DNA from: Treponema sp.
Lineage (GTDB): Bacteria; Spirochaetota; Spirochaetia; Treponematales; Treponemataceae
Direction: 5' to 3'
Assembly: GCF_051883275.1 (NCBI RefSeq)
Contig: NZ_JBJETK010000004.1
Coordinates: 13,270-77,269, forward strand
Length of the DNA: 64,000 bases
The position numbers and the translations under genes were made by a program. Under the pieces are notes generated by a model. It did not search any database. It saw only the letters and a list, made by a program, of their open reading frames with translations, and was not told where the DNA came from. This document shows, piece after piece, positions 4,065 through 12,255 of the stretch (position 1 is the stretch's first letter; the number at the start of each line of letters is the position of its first letter).

Positions 4065-4946
4065 CTATTTTCTGAATTCAGTTTTAAGTTTAATCTCAGG
4101 AAAGTATAATCTTTGCTCCTCAGAACCACATTCATAAAACTTTGGTTTTGAATTTTCATCACCATCGCCTTTATAAAATCCACCAATATAAAAATTTTTT
4201 ACATTTGATTTATATTTGCAAACCCAAACTCCATATACCTTAAGATAATCATGAGCCTGCTTCTTTGTAAAACAAAAATTATAAAACCGAATATCTTTTG
4301 ATGATGGATATGCTATTGGAACTATCGGAAAAAGTTCCATAGTTCTTGCAATTGATTGAGTTAATTTATATAGATAATTCTTATTATCAGAAGTTAAATT
4401 CTTTCTAAGAATTCTAGATTGGAAATCCAAAATCAAATCATTATTTTTATGACTTTGACTATCATTATATTTAGGTTTTAACCCAACAGGTACATACTCA
4501 AAATCTTTAATTACTTCATAAACAATTATGAAAAATAAATCATCTCGTTTGATGCCACATTCCTTAATGCAAGTGGTATAATTTTCAGATGTATATAATA
4601 CTTGTTCATTTTCTATATTTATTCTTCCTGTTAAGCATTTTTCCAAAGGAGGTTCCCAAAAATATGATACATTTTGAATGTTTCTATAAAAGTAATCCTT
4701 TTCTTCAAATGTTTTTTTAGAATCTTTATTAAAAAAATTTACGACCCTATATAATTTTGTTTTTTGTGAACAAAGTAACTTTGGTATTAAAAAACTGCCT
4801 GCTTGAGAAAAAGATAAAGTTTTACAATACTCTGCACAAATTTCAGCTTCAGACATACTTTCAAAATCCAAGCATAAAAACTTATCAAGACGACTTTTTA
4901 TTTTTTCTGTTGGAATTTGCTCTAATCTTTCTTGAAATTTGTCCAT
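4065..4946 (-). CDS. RES-domain-like protein
   Basis: LYRVV...FWEPP..C.TGRINIENEQVLYTSE...TCIKE...IAYPSS gives the R/E/S motif order of the RES family. It starts 5 nt after the R-M stop. Confidence 0.7.
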   Translation of the reverse strand: MDKFQERLEQIPTEKIKSRLDKFLCLDFESMSEAEICAEYCKTLSFSQAGSFLIPKLLCSQKTKLYRVVNFFNKDSKKTFEEKDYFYRNIQNVSYFWEPPLEKCLTGRINIENEQVLYTSENYTTCIKECGIKRDDLFFIIVYEVIKDFEYVPVGLKPKYNDSQSHKNNDLILDFQSRILRKNLTSDNKNYLYKLTQSIARTMELFPIVPIAYPSSKDIRFYNFCFTKKQAHDYLKVYGVWVCKYKSNVKNFYIGGFYKGDGDENSKPKFYECGSEEQRLYFPEIKLKTEFRK

Positions 4947-4951
4947 ATCTT

Positions 4952-7900
4952 CTACCTCCCTTCCACGATTGCAATTTCTTCTGCGGTCAAATCGTAGAGT
5001 TTGTACACTAAGGCGTTTATTTCTTTGTCGGTGGCGGTGATTTGGGTTTGTAGTTCCTGGAGCTGGTTTTTTGTGTCTTCAAAAATTTCGAGCCATTCGA
5101 GTTTGGTTTTTGGGGTGACTTTCTGCTTGAGTTCTTTCATAAAACCGTCAAAGTCCAGGTCGTAGAAAGTTTCCAGTTTTGTACTGATTTTTTCCAGCGC
5201 AAATGTCTGTTTTACAACTTTTAGGAAGTTGCCGGATTTTTTCTGCAAGTTTTCGTTGAGTGCGAGCATTTTGTCTGTCAAATCATCTAATTCTTTATTG
5301 TTTTCAAAATCTGGTATCGGAATTTGTTCAAAGTATTGCGGTTTTACTTCGATGTAACCGCCGTTTCTAACTACACAAATAGACGTAAGGAACTTCCATA
5401 CTATTTTTGAATTTAGAATGCTGACTAAAGATTTGTTATCAGTTGGAAGCATACAGCAAGGGGCTGAAACAATAGTTTTTGTTTCATCGTAAGAGAATTT
5501 GTTACTGTTTTGCAGGTTTCCCCAAATTACTTTGTTTTTTTCAAATAATGATTGATAAGCACAATTCCTTAAATTATAAGGCGTTTTTCCCTTGTCATAT
5601 CTTTTTTCAAGTTTGTCATAAAATCCATTCAGATAGTTTTTAACTGCCTTATAATCATCTATGTTTATCACGTCAATATCATCATAACCGTTATGAACTG
5701 ATAAAATATATTTTTCGATTGGACGATTAATCCATTTGTTCAAATCTTTGCCCTCAAAAACTTTTTTTATCAATTCGGCAGATTTCGGATCTTCTTCTAT
5801 AAGCCTGTTTTTTGTCGCTTCGTCAATAAAAAACGCTTCATTTAATCCCGTTAAAACACCTCTATAACATTTTCCGTATTTTTCAGAAACAGTAGGAAAA
5901 GAAGTTATCTTATTCAGAATAGATTTTAATTCGTTACTTTCAAAAGACCAGCTTTCACTATTTAAATTGGCTTGAGAAACATTCACATCATTACAGGCAT
6001 TTATAACGATATTTCCATTCATTGAATTAGGAATTTTTTTGTAAATGAAAATGTTGCCTTCTTCAAATTTCTTTTTCAAAATCAAAATAATCGGGTAAGT
6101 TGTTGCACCAGAGAATATTTGAACTTCTGTAAAATCAACATATTTTTCAATAGTTGTTTTTGTCGCTATAAAATCCCTTAATGTTTTTCCCGAAGTGGTT
6201 TTATCAAAAGTATTTGAAATAAATCCAAAAATGCCGTTTTCATTCAACAGGCTTAAGCCTTTTTCATAAAAATATGAGAACAAATCACCGTCTGGATTAA
6301 ATACATTGAAATTGTTTTTATAAAAAGTTATGTCTTTTGACAATAAAAGTTCAGCCCTGACATACGGCGGATTTCCAATTACTACATCAAAACCGCCTTT
6401 TTCGAACACTTCGGGGAATTCTTTTTCCCAGACGAAGGCTTTTTCGCCGGCTACGGCGGGGTCGTCGATGAGGGAGTTTCCGCATTTTATTTTGTTGTTC
6501 AGGGTGGTGAGTTTGCGGTCTTTTTGGGCAGTGTGCAGCCACAGGCTCAGTTTTGTAATTTCTACGCTTTCTTCGTTGATGTCTACGCCGTAAAGGTTGT
6601 TTTCCAGAATAGAGTTATCAGAATATTCGGCAAACGCCATTGTGTCATTGTTGATTGTGCGCAGAAAATCAAAAACGCGCCGGTGCTCTGTCTTGAGCTG
6701 AGTGAGGGCGGCAGTAAGGAATGCTCCGCTTCCGCAGGCAGGGTCTAGAATTTTCAACGTAAAAAGCCATTCCTGATATTCGTTGAGGGCTTTGTTCAGC
6801 CTGTCCTTTTCCTTTTTTGTCAGGGCTTTTGAAATGGCTTCGTCGTTTATGTTCAGTTCGGCACGCTTTTGTTCGCAGAGTTTTCCGATGGTGTTTTCTA
6901 CAATATATTTTGTGATGTATTCCGGCGTGTAGAAAACTCCGTCTTTTTTGCGCTTTCCCACATTATTGTTTTCAACTTTTTCGCCTGATTTTTCCGCTTC
7001 GATTTCTTTTTGAATTTCCTCGATTTCGGTGAGCGAGTTTTCAAAAATGCGTCCGAGAATGTCTACGGAAATCTGACTTTCAAAATCGTAATCTGCCAGC
7101 CGTTTTGTATGAATAAAAAGAACGTCGTCGCCGATTTTCAGACTGTCAAGAATTTCGTCCTGTTTGAAAAGTCCGCCGTTGTAGGCAAAAATGTTTTTAG
7201 TGCTGTCACTTTCGCTTTTGTAGCCTTTGTCTATTCTGTCAAAATAAGTTTTAAAAACACTGTACAGTGGCTGAGCGTAACCCATTTCCTTTAATTTCTG
7301 ATAGTCGCCGATAATGCCCATTACGCTGTTTGCCGGCAAAAGTCCGCGGTCTTCGCAAAAGAGGATAAACAAAATCCTGTCCAGAAGTTTCTGCGTTTTT
7401 TTGAACAGTACGAGTTTGTCTATTTCCGGGTTGTTTTCTATCATATCTTCAAACAGAAGGCGCTTGAACGTTGAATAGTCCGCATAAAAATTGTCGGTAA
7501 TCTGTTTTTCTTCGCTCAAAGTTTCGTGCTTGATTTTTAGCGGAACGTCGTTTTTGAGCTGGGTCAGTTCCATAAGAAGATACAGAATGCAGAAGTCCTC
7601 ATAGTTCAGCGTGAAAAGGTTGAATTCTATAAATTCGATTTGCGTTTCCACATAAACACGAAGACGCTCGAAGTTGCAGACTATTACGTAGTTGCAGTTT
7701 TCGTGGTGGGATTTGTAGTCGAATGCCTGACGGGCAACTGTGTCAAGGTCGGTGGTGTCTGTGCCTTTAAGTTCGATTACGGCACGCACGGAATTTTCGT
7801 TGTTTTCTTCGCAGATTGCGCCGTCTGACTTTCGGGCATTGTTCTTGTTTTTGGTTTCGTTTTTGAGTTCGGTAAGAATGTTGTAATCCGGCTCCGGCTT

Positions 7901-8092
7901 TATCGTATAGTTCAAGACTGAACAGAATACGTCGCGGATAAAGCCTTCCTGATACTGTTCTTCTTTTATCGTGCGGATATTTGCGATTTTAGTTTCGTTT
8001 TTGTAGTTTGCGCAGAAGAGTTCGTATTTTTCGTGTAAGAGGTTTGCATCTATTTTTGAAAGGTATTTTTCGATTATTGATTTTTGAAACAT
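4952..8092 (-). CDS. Type IIG restriction-modification enzyme (Eco57I/TaqI-like: nuclease + N6-adenine MTase + TRD)
   Basis: 1046 aa. N-terminal SDGAI...VIELKG PD-(D/E)XK motif, motif I ILDPACGSGAFL, motif IV VIGNPPYVR, and a TaqI_C-like TRD near the C-terminus. Confidence 0.95.
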   Translation of the reverse strand: MFQKSIIEKYLSKIDANLLHEKYELFCANYKNETKIANIRTIKEEQYQEGFIRDVFCSVLNYTIKPEPDYNILTELKNETKNKNNARKSDGAICEENNENSVRAVIELKGTDTTDLDTVARQAFDYKSHHENCNYVIVCNFERLRVYVETQIEFIEFNLFTLNYEDFCILYLLMELTQLKNDVPLKIKHETLSEEKQITDNFYADYSTFKRLLFEDMIENNPEIDKLVLFKKTQKLLDRILFILFCEDRGLLPANSVMGIIGDYQKLKEMGYAQPLYSVFKTYFDRIDKGYKSESDSTKNIFAYNGGLFKQDEILDSLKIGDDVLFIHTKRLADYDFESQISVDILGRIFENSLTEIEEIQKEIEAEKSGEKVENNNVGKRKKDGVFYTPEYITKYIVENTIGKLCEQKRAELNINDEAISKALTKKEKDRLNKALNEYQEWLFTLKILDPACGSGAFLTAALTQLKTEHRRVFDFLRTINNDTMAFAEYSDNSILENNLYGVDINEESVEITKLSLWLHTAQKDRKLTTLNNKIKCGNSLIDDPAVAGEKAFVWEKEFPEVFEKGGFDVVIGNPPYVRAELLLSKDITFYKNNFNVFNPDGDLFSYFYEKGLSLLNENGIFGFISNTFDKTTSGKTLRDFIATKTTIEKYVDFTEVQIFSGATTYPIILILKKKFEEGNIFIYKKIPNSMNGNIVINACNDVNVSQANLNSESWSFESNELKSILNKITSFPTVSEKYGKCYRGVLTGLNEAFFIDEATKNRLIEEDPKSAELIKKVFEGKDLNKWINRPIEKYILSVHNGYDDIDVINIDDYKAVKNYLNGFYDKLEKRYDKGKTPYNLRNCAYQSLFEKNKVIWGNLQNSNKFSYDETKTIVSAPCCMLPTDNKSLVSILNSKIVWKFLTSICVVRNGGYIEVKPQYFEQIPIPDFENNKELDDLTDKMLALNENLQKKSGNFLKVVKQTFALEKISTKLETFYDLDFDGFMKELKQKVTPKTKLEWLEIFEDTKNQLQELQTQITATDKEINALVYKLYDLTAEEIAIVEGR

Positions 8093-8594: not shown

Positions 8595-8793
8595 ATACGC
8601 TATATATAGTGCGGATTCTGAAACAAGATGTCATGATATAAATATCTGAAATGTGGTACTCTGATTCGACGGAATCAGAGAGTCGGCGGAAGGTTCTTCC
8701 GAACAGTGAAGAAGGCACCTAAAAAAAGTCTCTTACTTCGAAAACAAGATTGACCAAAAACGTTGTTAGTCGTTTTTATCCAATTCTATGAAA

Positions 8794-9273
8794 TTACCAT
8801 TGACTTTTATCTATCTGATATTTTTTAAAAATTCCTTTATTAGAATCCCATATAAGTGAAATTCCTTCCGTAACATTTTTTCCATTTTCACAGTAATAAA
8901 TTGTGTGAATATATCCTGTTTTTTCAGTTATATTAATTTTCCAACCATAAAACTGTTTTCCTTTTATATCTGATGAAAACAAAACAGTATTGTTTGTTTC
9001 AATTTTATTTTCAGAAAACTTTATGTAAGGATATACTTCATTTTTATTACTCGGTAATTCATAAATTATTGCTTTATCAAATATTTGTCTTTCAGAATCT
9101 TTATAATTAGCTGATAAATACATTTTTTTTCCACAAATACTAATTATTTCTGTTTTAAAATTATTATCTCCAAAATAGGACTCTAGATATGAAAGAGGTT
9201 CTTTTGAATGTATACGAAAGGCACAAAATACTAACAGAAAAATTGCTGTAAATGTCTTAAATCGCTTTTCCAT
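8794..9273 (-). CDS. Exported protein, putative immunity protein for the upstream NlpC/P60 domain
   Basis: 159 aa with a signal-peptide-like N-terminus (MEKRFKTFTAIFLLVFCAFRIHS). Starts 9 nt after the fusion gene stop. The function is inferred from position. Confidence 0.65.
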   Translation of the reverse strand: MEKRFKTFTAIFLLVFCAFRIHSKEPLSYLESYFGDNNFKTEIISICGKKMYLSANYKDSERQIFDKAIIYELPSNKNEVYPYIKFSENKIETNNTVLFSSDIKGKQFYGWKINITEKTGYIHTIYYCENGKNVTEGISLIWDSNKGIFKKYQIDKSQW

Positions 9274-9282
9274 AATTATCTC

Positions 9283-10197
9283 CTAAAATCGTAAGCTTCT
9301 GATTTCCCCAGTTTGAGGTAAAGGGGTTTCAATTAATTCTATAAGACCAGGATTGTCTAAGGTGTTTTCAGGTCCACCAGAGGCATTTACTCTGGCACCA
9401 TTTGAATTAACTATAGTTTGGACATGTACTATTCTGCCGTCTTCATCTCGCAAGAAACGTAAATCACCTCTTTGAAGAGGCCCATTAACAGGTTCTGTGT
9501 AATTAGCATAAATATCACTAGCTGTTTGATCCGGTATATTATTTCCCATTTGATTAAGACCGTATATTATTGAACCAGAACAATCCATTCCACCGTCTTC
9601 TGGTGAATTACCACCCCAAACATATGAACTTCCAACTAAGTTTTCCATAGTTTCTGCAAACTGCTCTGCAGATCCACTTAATTGTGAAGAATTATTATTA
9701 AAAGTATTATCTATAGAGTTTTCTGCTGCAATATTTTGGTTTGCAGGCAAAGTATATGCGGTAGTAGTATCATTGTCTGTTTCAATACCTTCATGTGCGA
9801 TTTCCATTCTTTCAAGTGCAAAGGTATTAGAACATGAACAATCAAGTTTTGGACCAATCCAGCGGCAAGGTATTGCCCGAAAGAAATTCCATCGTTTGAT
9901 TTCATTTCCTTCTGTATCTTTTAGGACAATCGAACCACTTTTACGTTCGACTTTTTCTGAAATTAAGAAATTCTTGAACCAGTTGAATAATTCATCGTTG
10001 TTGCTGATTCCCTTTTCTAGAACAAAATTTGGATAGCGAGTTCGCCCCTTAAAACGATGAACGCCGCCACCACCTTCTTCAATTTCAAATACTTCAGTTT
10101 CAGCTTCTAAGCCTTCACATTTTTGAAATCTTGCAGTTTCAATTCCGTCAAGTTCTATAAAAAATAAATATGATTTTAAATTAGAGTTATCTGCCAT
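9283..10197 (-). CDS. Fusion of a T4-gp19/Afp1-like contractile tail tube domain (aa ~1-140) and an NlpC/P60 peptidoglycan hydrolase domain (aa ~175-304)
   Basis: Tube motifs: FFIELDG..ARFQKCEGLEAETEVFEIEEGG...GRTRYPNFVLEKGI...LFNWF...RKSGSIVL.D..G.EI.RWNF.RA.PCRW.GP.L...ERMEIAHEG. NlpC/P60 motifs: LVGSSYVWGG...GMDCSG...GDL.F...IVHV...VNAS. Confidence 0.9.
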   Translation of the reverse strand: MADNSNLKSYLFFIELDGIETARFQKCEGLEAETEVFEIEEGGGGVHRFKGRTRYPNFVLEKGISNNDELFNWFKNFLISEKVERKSGSIVLKDTEGNEIKRWNFFRAIPCRWIGPKLDCSCSNTFALERMEIAHEGIETDNDTTTAYTLPANQNIAAENSIDNTFNNNSSQLSGSAEQFAETMENLVGSSYVWGGNSPEDGGMDCSGSIIYGLNQMGNNIPDQTASDIYANYTEPVNGPLQRGDLRFLRDEDGRIVHVQTIVNSNGARVNASGGPENTLDNPGLIELIETPLPQTGEIRSLRF

Positions 10198-10288: not shown

Positions 10289-10395
10289 CGACTAACTATG
10301 CAGCTAAACCGCAACGCAATTTACAGCCACACGAATCGCTCGCGTTTTTTCCTTAAGTTTAAATCCGTCAAAAACTGCTCCCGCATGAAGCGAAA
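10289..10395 (+). other. Possible truncated integron attC site
   Basis: Begins CGACTAAC, the exact complement of GTTAGTCG at 8765-8772. An internal hairpin is present, but the distal arm is missing and is replaced by an IS110 fragment. Confidence 0.45.
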
Positions 10396-10399
10396 AATG

Positions 10400-10550
10400 A
10401 AGGGCAATCAGAATGTAGTACCAGTGGCTTGCTGCAAGAAAATTGGCAGAGCTGATGTACACTCTGTTGAAAAATGGTATGTCATATGAAAAAAGAGCTT
10501 CCGTGTCAGCTAAACAGCTGGCAGCAGAAGTCCTTGCAATGGCCAGTTAA
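10400..10550 (+). pseudogene. IS110-family transposase C-terminal remnant
   Basis: Manual translation across a frameshift gives KGNQNVVPVA/ARKLAELMYTLLKNGMSYEKR...*, resembling the IS110 C-terminal A-V-A-R-K-L...L-K motif. Confidence 0.6.
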
Positions 10551-10697
10551 TTATTGGAATCAGGAGCTTCATGGTATTGACAAATATCATAGGAGTTCAG
10601 AATGACACCAGTTTTTAGATACTTTTTCCCATATTTTTCACTTGATTTTCACTGATTTTTCACATATATTAACTGTAAAAGCACTTTAAACAATGTT

Positions 10698-10976
10698 TTG
10701 GAGGACAATATGGCAAACATTACAATTACTTTGGACGATCAGGATAAAACTGCTATTTCTAATTTCTGCGAGCAGATTGGCATGACTGTTTCAGGGCTTT
10801 ACAATGTTTTTACAAAGCAGGTTATCCGCGAAGGACGCATTCCGTTTGAAATCAAAGTTGACCGCCCGAACCGCAAGACAATCAAAGCAATGCTCGAAGG
10901 CGACAAAATCGCAAACGACCCGAATGTCAAAGGATATACAAATGTTCACGAAATGATGGAGGCTTTGCTTAAATAA
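10698..10976 (+). CDS. dinJ: RelB/DinJ family antitoxin
   Basis: ITITLDDQDK...IGMTVSGLYNVFTKQVIREGRIPFEI...PNRKTIKAM.EG; overlaps the yafQ start. Confidence 0.9.
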   Translation: MEDNMANITITLDDQDKTAISNFCEQIGMTVSGLYNVFTKQVIREGRIPFEIKVDRPNRKTIKAMLEGDKIANDPNVKGYTNVHEMMEALLK

Positions 10977-11278
10977 TGGAATTTTCAAAGAAAAAAACAA
11001 AATATGAAATGCGTTTTACATCTGCAATGAAAAAAGACATGAAAAAAATTGTAAAACGCCATTATGATTTAAATCTTTTTGCAGAAACCGTTGAAAAACT
11101 CGCTAATGCCCAGCCTCTTGAAGAAAAATACTGCGACCATGCCCTTGAAGGAAACTGGAAAGGTCATCGTGAACTGCACATAAGACCTGACTGGCTGTTA
11201 ATTTATCAGATTAAAGACGATGTGCTTATCCTTGAACTTTCCAGAACCGGAACCCATTCAGATTTATTCGGAAAATAA
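10976..11278 (+). CDS. yafQ: YafQ family mRNA interferase toxin
   Basis: FTSAMKKDMK...PLEEKYCDHALEGNWKGHRELHIRPDWLLIY...L.L.RTGTHSDLF. Confidence 0.95.
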   Translation: MEFSKKKTKYEMRFTSAMKKDMKKIVKRHYDLNLFAETVEKLANAQPLEEKYCDHALEGNWKGHRELHIRPDWLLIYQIKDDVLILELSRTGTHSDLFGK

Positions 11279-11394: not shown

Positions 11395-12255
11395 ATGAAT
11401 GTCAAATCTAAAAAACAGCTTGAGCAGGTTGATTTTCTCAATGCAATAAATGAACTTGGAATAGGCGGTGCTGACGTATGTGTTCACGCATCGGTAAAAT
11501 CGTTCGGGGCAAAGATTAACTGCGGAATAAAGGGAATCGTCTTGGCTTTTTTGTCGCAGGACTGCACTGTGATGGTTCCGGCATTTTGCGATGAATACGA
11601 AGCGCGGCCCGAAAAAAAATATATGCCCGAACGGAACGGAGCAGGGGACTATTCATTTTTTTTGAACAGGGACTATCCTGTAAAAAAAATCTTTGACGTA
11701 ACGAGCAGAGAAATTTCGCTTGAAGAAATGGGACTGTTTTCAAAAACCGTTCTGGATTTTGAAAATGCCGTCAGGGGAAACAACCCTTTAAACTCATTCG
11801 CCGCAGTCGGACGCAATGCAGAAAAACTTACGCTCTCGCAGACTGCCCGCGACGTTTATGCTCCGTTACGCAGACTGTGTGACGACGGCGGCTACGTCCT
11901 TTTAATCGGCGTCGGACTTGATTCTGCAACAATCATTCATTACGCTGAACAGCTCGCAGGCAGAACTCCGTTTGTCAGATGGGCATACGGCAAAGACCTT
12001 CGCGTAATTCCCGTATCAGCCGGAAGCTGCTCCGACGGCTTTGAAAACCTCGCTCCGTTCGTCAGCCCCATCGCCCGAAAAACAAAAGTTGCCGAAAGCG
12101 AATGGATATGCTTCAAAGCCTCCGACCTCGCCGCCCTCTGCCAGACCCAAATCACCCGAACCCCAAAAATAACCCATTGCCCCGACCCCACCTGCCCCCG
12201 CTGCAACGACGCCATCTCCGGCGGCCCAATCCTCCCACCAGACTTCTGGAAGTAA
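11395..12255 (+). CDS. AAC(3) family aminoglycoside N3-acetyltransferase homolog
   Basis: VCVHASVKSFG...TVMVPAF...RGNNPLNSFAAVG...VLLIGVGLDSATIIHYAE..A are AAC(3)/YokD family motifs. Confidence 0.85.
   Translation: MNVKSKKQLEQVDFLNAINELGIGGADVCVHASVKSFGAKINCGIKGIVLAFLSQDCTVMVPAFCDEYEARPEKKYMPERNGAGDYSFFLNRDYPVKKIFDVTSREISLEEMGLFSKTVLDFENAVRGNNPLNSFAAVGRNAEKLTLSQTARDVYAPLRRLCDDGGYVLLIGVGLDSATIIHYAEQLAGRTPFVRWAYGKDLRVIPVSAGSCSDGFENLAPFVSPIARKTKVAESEWICFKASDLAALCQTQITRTPKITHCPDPTCPRCNDAISGGPILPPDFWK

Follow-up and report, generated by a model that had tools for sequence, protein, structure and literature searches.

A stretch of 64,000 nt from a Treponema species (assembly GCF_051883275.1, contig NZ_JBJETK010000004.1, positions 13,270 to 77,269; hereafter the window) contains two adjacent genes which probably form a toxin-immunity cassette of a polymorphic family that uses the inner tube of a contractile injection system (CIS) as carrier. 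The first gene encodes a complete tube subunit which continues, through a disordered linker, into a predicted peptidoglycan hydrolase; the second encodes a small secreted protein, the putative antidote. This view is based on the strong conservation of the tube domain, on the exchange of the C-terminal domains among its relatives, and on partner genes that change together with the toxin type.

The tube-toxin gene and its secreted partner

The tube-toxin gene is a single open reading frame (ORF) for 304 amino acids (aa) on the minus strand (window positions 9283-10197), in which a tube domain, a linker and an NlpC/P60 domain are joined. The preliminary description of this locus, made from the sequence alone, had proposed a full-length gp19/Afp1-like tube domain, and this was confirmed with Pfam: PF06841 (Phage_T4_gp19) spans residues 9-139 with an E-value of 2.8e-30 and 105 bits against a curated cut-off of 28.2, and the profile is covered from position 2 to position 134 of 134. 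We assign residues 1-140 (9778-10197, minus strand) to a complete inner-tube domain of the gp19/Afp1 type, which in the alignment ends exactly where the free structural tubes of 146 aa end. In phmmer searches against the PDB the N-terminal domain matched the entries 9gtp, 7adz, 6j0b and 6rao (E between 1e-12 and 1e-9), and Foldseek retrieved the CIS tubes 9gtp, 7aeb, 6j0n and 6rao (probability 1.0, template modelling score of about 0.5-0.55 on the target). The tube subunits matched in the PDB are those of the Streptomyces CIS, AlgoCIS, PVC and Afp; Hcp was found by Foldseek as a distant, weak structural match.

The Asn/Thr-rich linker of about 35 aa, which had also been noticed beforehand, corresponds to residues 141-175 (DNDTTTAYTLPANQNIAAENSIDNTFNNNSSQLSG; 9673-9777, minus strand). 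It opens with the junction motif D-N-D, which is common to most tube-toxin members of the family. In an AlphaFold2 model of the 304-aa protein, built with 41 homologues as input and of moderate confidence (mean predicted local distance difference test score, pLDDT, of 66), the linker is disordered, with a pLDDT below 50 across residues 142-170 and a folded domain on either side.

The remaining residues 176-304 (9286-9672, minus strand) make up a predicted NlpC/P60 peptidoglycan hydrolase toxin domain. Residues 189-263 match the Pfam profile PF00877 with 40.3 bits, above the cut-off of 23 (E 3.4e-10), and both by sequence and by fold the domain matches D,L-endopeptidases of the LytE and Spr types in the PDB. 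The catalytic residues that had been read as intact, namely Cys206 (in DCSG), His258 (in VHV) and Asn271, show no variation across an alignment of 64 toxin-domain homologues, and we predict that the domain is a Cys-His-Asn peptidoglycan endopeptidase. The protein lacks a signal peptide. Members of the same NlpC/P60 subfamily, with 50-60% identity, are found at the C-terminal end of RHS-repeat proteins and of small proteins that have double-glycine leader peptides of the bacteriocin type. Because the subfamily tips these other proteins, the domain looks like a circulating interbacterial toxin cassette and not like a housekeeping wall enzyme, and one toxin cassette is probably common to three export routes (tube, RHS and double-glycine leader). 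P0130, P0133 and P0140 as well as P0128 and P0129 were recorded as NlpC/P60 toxin cassettes on double-glycine-leader and RHS carriers.

The 304-aa fusion is one intact gene. The identical protein, together with the same downstream gene, was found in at least 12 metagenome samples that were assembled independently, and the combination of tube and NlpC/P60 domains recurs in more than 40 orthologues with 61-70% identity, one of them encoded in the closed chromosome of T. succinifaciens DSM 2489. The fusion is thus genuine, and the frameshift or assembly artefact which had been named as a possible refutation was not found. In public databases such proteins are labelled 'phage tail protein' or 'NlpC/P60 domain-containing protein'.

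The stop codon of the toxin gene is separated by 9 nt from the start of the downstream ORF (8794-9273, minus strand), and the signal peptide ascribed to its product is a typical one: the 159-aa protein, for which we found no Pfam match, begins with MEKRFKTFTAIFLLVFCAFRIHS|KEP, and residues 24-159 would make up its mature form. It is 49% identical to the product of the gene that follows the tube-NlpC/P60 gene of T. succinifaciens. Behind two non-tube carriers the toxin domain is likewise followed by homologues (27-33% identity, E 1e-17 to 1e-25), and one homologue is an orphan in DSM 2489 which in another strain is paired with a toxin. The partner families differ by toxin, since NlpC/P60 domains are accompanied by proteins of 154-159 aa, M23 domains by proteins of 161-162 aa, and the 338-aa type by a WG_beta_rep protein of 240 aa. 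A word-index search with the immunity protein returned two relatives only; the others were drawn from the neighbourhoods of toxin homologues. To judge from these sequences, the downstream secreted protein co-varies with the toxin type even behind non-tube carriers, in line with the role of immunity partner that had been proposed for it. Its predicted structure is all-beta (AlphaFold2, pLDDT 82), and a fold search with this model gave no significant relative in the PDB. We annotate the gene as a predicted cognate periplasmic immunity gene. A toxin without signal peptide and a periplasmic antidote fit a wall hydrolase which would be injected into the periplasm, with the first protein of the window pair presumably toxic and the second presumably protective.

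Domain exchange and the machine in related spirochaetes

A word-index search for homologues of the tube-toxin protein retrieved 118 relatives and an exhaustive HMMER search 4363, of which 39 had E <= 1e-30. When a C-extended tube protein is defined as an N-terminal tube domain with at least 80 further residues, about 120 were among those retrieved, mostly from Treponema, and their tube parts are 60-89% identical to the window copy. The C-termini of these proteins sort into about 34 unrelated clusters. Those recognised by Pfam contain PF00877 (NlpC/P60), PF01551 (Peptidase_M23), PF01471 (PG_binding_1), PF15636 (Tox-GHH), PF14410 (GH-E), PF14414 with PF12639 (WHH and colicin DNase), PF14428 (DddA-like deaminase) or PF21814; many clusters are without any Pfam match, and one family member carries a pre-toxin HINT domain (PT-HINT). 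The polymorphic tube-toxin family that the preliminary description had predicted was thus recovered by the architecture search, as a conserved gp19 N-terminal module followed by many unrelated toxin domains.

Within this family the similarity of the tubes and the similarity of the toxins disagree. The window tube domain is 89% identical to that of P0041, which carries an M23 domain, yet 68% to those of its NlpC/P60 orthologues, and in the tree three T. succinifaciens fusions have near-identical tube domains with three different toxins. This disagreement argues for exchange of the C-terminal cassette, and according to these comparisons recombination swaps the toxin among about 34 types. The tube domain, for its part, is under strong purifying selection: the ratio of nonsynonymous to synonymous substitution rates (dN/dS) is 0.08 between the window gene and the M23-bearing gene of locus L015, and the tube domain of the fusion keeps 82% mean column identity with structural tubes. 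We hold it to be probable that the family consists of polymorphic toxins in which a complete inner-tube subunit of an Afp/PVC-like CIS serves as the constant N-terminal 'trafficking' module.

In T. succinifaciens-like strains the fusions occupy a hotspot flanked by a Peptidase_U32 gene and metE; in DSM 2489 the array stands at about 268-278 kb of CP002631. What this hotspot contains, including toxin fragments and orphan immunity genes, varies across three T. succinifaciens strains; the window holds a single toxin-immunity pair and no array. Tube-toxin genes were also seen on contigs binned as Desulfovibrionaceae, Lachnospiraceae and Bacteroidales metagenome-assembled genomes (L042, L040 and L065). 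The gene pair of L042 has 91% DNA identity to T. succinifaciens, so that mis-binning or recent transfer is likely.

A machine to which the tube domain would belong is found in relatives. The T. succinifaciens plasmid of 165.6 kb carries genes for gp25, a Baseplate_J protein of 940 aa, sheath A (401 aa), tube A (142 aa), sheath B (494 aa), tube B (146 aa), a CIS_tube-LysM protein, a GPD hub and Tail_P2_I, and in addition several spike (Phage_base_V)-PAAR proteins with variable ends as well as FHA and VWA proteins. In the other genomes examined the same CIS genes form one locus of ~17 kb, for example in T. lecithinolyticum ATCC 700332 (Scaffold9) and in a Treponemataceae chromosome, where an AAA ATPase is included. 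With tube B of T. succinifaciens the window tube domain has 62% identity, with tube A 32%. When each species was represented by one genome, a search with a tube-only alignment recovered the free 146-aa tube B from at least 24 spirochaete species, always in an operon with the order VWA, sheath B, tube B, LysM tube and hub. Judged by these identities, the window tube domain is a close paralogue of the structural tube that stands beside the sheath in Treponema CIS operons, and the delivery system of the extracellular CIS (eCIS) type which had been postulated has its match in T. succinifaciens, in T. lecithinolyticum and in these spirochaete species.

Fusion and CIS occur together in T. succinifaciens, T. 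lecithinolyticum and Treponema RUI115. In a survey of 151 genomes of the same taxonomic family, gp19 was matched in 14 (in 13 of them above the Pfam cut-off) and the sheath in 23; fusions were enriched in CIS-bearing genomes (2/6 versus 2/145, Fisher p = 0.008, with relatives being non-independent and many genomes being bins). The tube-toxin family is confined to the lineage owning this Afp/PVC-like CIS. Among the fusions surveyed across species, no fusion gene was found within 3 kb of structural CIS genes. Because of this separation the homologues are not ordinary prophage tail genes, an outcome which the preliminary description had considered as a refutation.

The gene order of the spirochaete CIS locus (L004/L005, L006, L007 and L012) is unusual. 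The genes for gp25, Baseplate_J, sheath A and tube A are followed by about six genes and then by those for sheath B, tube B, LysM tube, hub, AAA ATPase and spike-PAAR, with several spike-PAAR genes of variable C-termini. Several of the about six mid-locus genes are without a Pfam match, and DUF1257, Tail_P2_I, FHA and VWA proteins are also encoded there. The FHA, VWA and membrane proteins of the locus may point to regulation or anchoring.

In CIS-bearing cells, the fusion protein would co-polymerise into the inner tube at less than full occupancy, or it would cap the end of the tube, and the linker of 35 aa would let the enzyme of ~14 kDa hang in or beyond the tube; the C-terminus of the tube domain may face either the lumen or the sheath. 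Contraction of the sheath would push the tube into the periplasm of a neighbouring bacterium, where the toxin could cut the peptide stems of peptidoglycan, while the periplasmic immunity protein would shield sister cells. With such delivery through the tube, the logic of Hcp toxins in type VI secretion systems (T6SS) would be carried over to a gp19-type tube.

Genomic setting and competing explanations

Several findings weigh against this proposal. The assembly (75 contigs, 2.54 Mb, a completeness of 99.7% by marker genes) was searched with Pfam profiles for sheath (PF04984, PF17482), gp25, Baseplate_J, a second gp19 tube, VipB and Hcp, and none of these was found (no match to PF05638 or PF05943); the fusion is the sole gp19 match. 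A second fusion-bearing genome (G006) is also without CIS machine genes. Further, known eCIS cargo is loaded via N-terminal signals and an AAA+ ATPase, not by tube fusion (10.64898/2026.05.27.728243). Last, a promoter scan, which in this case was not informative, revealed no strong sigma-70-type promoter upstream of the tube-toxin gene.

The statement that no sheath, baseplate or spike gene is present in the 64-kb window held, and for sheath and baseplate it extends to the whole assembly; a CIS locus elsewhere in the genome, which was to be looked for, was not found in the assembly. This absence is weak evidence because CIS loci reside on small stand-alone contigs or on a plasmid and are easily lost from a bin: the locus is a stand-alone contig of 15-17 kb in two drafts (Scaffold9 of T. 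lecithinolyticum and C42 of G074), and it is plasmid-borne in T. succinifaciens. With 28 CIS proteins of T. succinifaciens as queries, tblastn detected only an orphan spike-PAAR gene and a hub fragment in the assembly. The spike gene (C28:3261-4841, L073), which lies outside the window, is intact and encodes 526 aa with Phage_base_V and PAAR domains; it matches a spike-PAAR-toxin protein of 667 aa from the T. succinifaciens plasmid over the first 512 residues of the latter, with 62% identity, and its own toxin end is apparently absent. The hub-like fragment (C4:96323-98356, L074) is situated about 19 kb past the window end, close to the contig end. Its ORF of 236 aa matches the CIS hub over hub residues 271-457 with 47% identity, shows a weak YQBQ-like Pfam match and adjoins the gene of a DUF3289 protein. 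A counterpart of the T. succinifaciens plasmid was represented only by scattered matches among 137 plasmid ORFs, which was uninformative. Of the antibacterial CIS use by a gut spirochaete that had been suggested, the machine and the toxin-immunity pairs stand in relatives; use by this organism, for which no CIS locus was found, is unproven.

The cassette lies in a low-GC stretch (0.30-0.35; elsewhere in the window about 0.44) among restriction-modification (R-M) and toxin-antitoxin (TA) genes, and both of its flanks contain putative remnants of attC sites and of IS110-family elements. Upstream of the cassette, the 3' half of an attC-like site (…GCGGTTTAGCTGCATAGTTAGTC; 10290-10317, minus strand) aligns with a 67-nt hairpin of L015, and a 3'-end remnant of an IS110-family transposase gene (10424-10595, minus strand) is 72% identical to the IS110 transposase gene adjoining the L015 homologue. 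Just past the immunity gene, the inverse-core-like box CGACTAACAACG (8761-8772, minus strand), presumably what is left of the downstream attC site, matches GCCTAACAACGG after the immunity gene of L015. An IS110-family 5'-end remnant on this opposite flank (8625-8718, plus strand) is 81% identical to L015 1821-1917, in inverted orientation. In L015, the closest homologue, the upstream attC-like hairpin of 67 nt is complete, with the boxes GCATAAC and GTTAGGC, a folding free energy (dG) of -19.9 kcal/mol and a z score of -6.7. Complete attC-like hairpins at L015:200-270 and 1765-1840 bracket the tube-M23 toxin gene and its immunity gene there, and an intact IS110 transposase gene is inserted past the second site.

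The attC half-sites of the window do not fold alone, their motif is not repeated in the window, where the box 9-mer occurs only twice, and the genome contains no integron integrase (best match to TIGR02249 74 bits against a cut-off of 265). No attC-like sites were found in the T. succinifaciens array, and the association with attC therefore characterises this sub-lineage, not the family as a whole. The contigs from independent metagenomes end inside the IS110/attC flanks. Based on the hairpins of L015, it is tempting to speculate that in some treponemes polymorphic toxin-immunity pairs may travel as two-gene integron cassettes.

The neighbouring genes of the island include one for a type IIG R-M enzyme of 1046 aa (4952-8092, minus strand), which is Eco57I/MmeI-like and has N6_Mtase and TaqI_C domains; an ORF of 293 aa just downstream of it (4065-4946) has no Pfam match at E <= 0.1. 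Directly upstream of the cassette, a type II TA pair consists of a RelB/DinJ antitoxin and a YafQ toxin (10698-11278, plus strand). A 286-aa protein encoded in the same low-GC island (11395-12255, plus strand) matches the aminoglycoside 3-N-acetyltransferase profile PF02522 with E 2e-26.

A low-GC island with IS110/attC remnants, taken together with the lack of a machine, leads to two possibilities for this genome, namely an orphan cassette or the payload of an unassembled or unbinned CIS, and we regard them as about equally probable. The fuller account of an orphan is a sub-case of the favoured explanation and concerns this genome alone. It supposes that the machine is truly absent, that the cassette was acquired via attC/IS110, and that it is kept because the immunity protein protects against CIS-armed Treponema neighbours firing the same toxin, with the toxin gene retained through its linkage to the immunity gene. 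We give this account a little less than an even chance. The absence of core CIS genes anywhere in the assembly, the partial state of the remaining spike and hub pieces, the island with its R-M and TA genes and its flanking remnants, and the orphan immunity genes of the same family in T. succinifaciens are in line with it. However, the toxin ORF is intact with all its catalytic residues, the identical protein recurs in the at least 12 samples mentioned above, and a locus on a contig of 15-17 kb or on a plasmid could easily have been lost from this binned assembly.

It is unlikely that the toxin is altogether independent of a CIS, its tube domain forming rings or serving as carrier or solubility module and its exit relying on lysis, vesicles or other export. 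Among the 151 genomes sampled, four bear a fusion, and in two of these no CIS was detected; the toxin domain uses RHS and double-glycine-leader carriers too. But the tube domain is full length, ends with the structural tubes and is strongly conserved, which would hardly be expected if it did not interact with the machine; the lack of a signal peptide, the enrichment of fusions in CIS-bearing genomes (relatives again being non-independent) and the confinement of the family to the CIS-owning lineage also speak against a CIS-independent toxin. Much less probable still is an ordinary tail gene of a prophage or tailocin, in which the tube would carry a virion-associated lysin for wall penetration, although PHROGs annotates the N-terminal part as 'tail tube protein' and the NlpC/P60 part as 'minor tail protein' and the source records read 'phage tail protein'. 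No phage genes adjoin any fusion gene examined, nuclease, deaminase and PT-HINT C-termini make no sense as entry lysins, and each toxin type has its matched secreted partner gene; on these grounds this explanation was rejected. The strain-variable arrays with orphan immunity genes argue in the same direction. The probability that two genes were fused by an assembly or frameshift artefact is negligible, and this possibility was rejected in view of the independent assemblies and of the orthologues with the same architecture, including that in the closed DSM 2489 chromosome.

The favoured explanation, a toxin-immunity cassette with a CIS tube as carrier, can be embedded in a broader picture, for which and against which we see equal weight. 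Spirochaetes would fight bacteria with Afp/PVC-like CIS whose tube subunits are polymorphic toxins, and the cassettes would move as attC/IS110-associated units and persist as orphans in machine-less genomes. The 'evolved tube' effectors would then stand alongside the polymorphic spike-PAAR toxins.

This matter is important for several reasons. Machines of the eCIS/PVC type are mostly viewed as anti-eukaryote devices which are loaded by N-terminal signals and an ATPase. If the explanation given here is true, such machines are antibacterial weapons of gut and oral spirochaetes, and the covalent fusion to a tube subunit is an added loading route for CIS outside the T6SS, which could also serve engineered protein-delivery particles. 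In addition, the family offers about 30 C-terminal domains, many of them without Pfam match, as candidate new toxins together with their antidotes. T. succinifaciens DSM 2489, which is cultivable and non-pathogenic, would be a tractable test system.

Comparison with known systems

Hcp-ET proteins, which Ma et al. reportedly described in 2017, are 'evolved' Hcp tubes of T6SS with C-terminal extended toxin domains. The treponemal family resembles them in its use of a tube subunit as constant N-terminal carrier of varied C-terminal antibacterial toxins, in the adjacent immunity gene, and in the location of its genes, which are often apart from the main machine locus. The carrier, however, is the gp19/Afp1-type PF06841 subunit of Afp/PVC-like CIS and not Hcp (PF05638). 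For this reason, and since the genome has no T6SS (TssB/C), the family does not belong to Hcp-ET, though it is similar in logic. To our knowledge, and according to our literature searches, there is no report of a T6SS in Spirochaetes. Context on T6SS Hcp toxins is available elsewhere (PMC8262886, 10.1101/2021.10.07.463556). The fusions that are encoded away from structural genes are also reminiscent of the auxiliary Hcp and VgrG islands of T6SS.

In T6SS, Tae and Tai are effector-immunity pairs in which the effector is a peptidoglycan amidase. The window pair likewise combines a predicted Cys-His wall hydrolase of the NlpC/P60 superfamily, which has no signal peptide, with a predicted periplasmic immunity protein that has one. 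The differences are that the toxin is covalently fused to the tube, whereas Tae is bound inside the Hcp ring, and that the immunity protein is without detectable sequence or fold relative in Pfam or PDB. A tube fold with a peptidoglycan-related C-terminal extension is also known from LysM proteins of the Afp7/Pvc7 type, and the Treponema locus has one of them (CIS_tube with LysM). In contrast to the tube-toxins, that protein is a structural tube initiator, which occurs once per locus, is not polymorphic and has no immunity gene. Toxin-immunity pairs of a CIS outside the canonical T6SS lineage have been described in haloarchaea, where a T6SS-like CIS mediates contact-dependent antagonism and the pairs are encoded within the cluster as well as beyond it (Zachs et al. 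2024, PMC11566945). The treponemal system is similar in this respect, but in haloarchaea each toxin is a protein of its own, presumed to travel on the spike, and fusions to the tube were not reported (PMC11566945).

With polymorphic toxin systems (PMC3482391) the family has in common a constant trafficking module and recombining C-terminal cassettes (Tox-GHH, GH-E, WHH, deaminase, M23 and NlpC/P60), as well as the PT-HINT domain in one member, the immunity gene directly after the toxin gene, and arrays with orphan cassettes. The list of trafficking modules compiled by Zhang et al. 2012 is without a gp19 tube; its PVC route is that of the PVC-metallopeptidase, and gp19 figures as structural only (PMC3482391). 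The family is also comparable to eCIS effectors, since the machine class is the same and the Treponema loci carry polymorphic spike-PAAR-toxin genes. The loading routes described for eCIS are spike/PAAR fusions, DUF4157 or PVC-metallopeptidase, and N-terminal signals that direct cargo to the lumen (PMC8651086, PMC8213781, 10.64898/2026.05.27.728243), and according to Chen et al. 2019 VgrG of eCIS never has a C-terminal extension. We found no tube-subunit fusion in the eCIS surveys (Chen 2019, Geller 2021), the PAAR survey, Zhang 2012, the polymorphic-toxin screen or the 2026 cargo-loading study. Phage-tail-like loci of Treponema were merely counted by Sarris et al. 2014, and our literature searches yielded no Treponema CIS study beyond this count and no described gp19-toxin architecture. 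The architecture is thus found in public databases, whereas in the literature it appears to be undescribed. As compared with all these systems, the gp19 tube would represent a new trafficking module for polymorphic toxins and, at the same time, a new cargo mode for Afp/PVC-like CIS.

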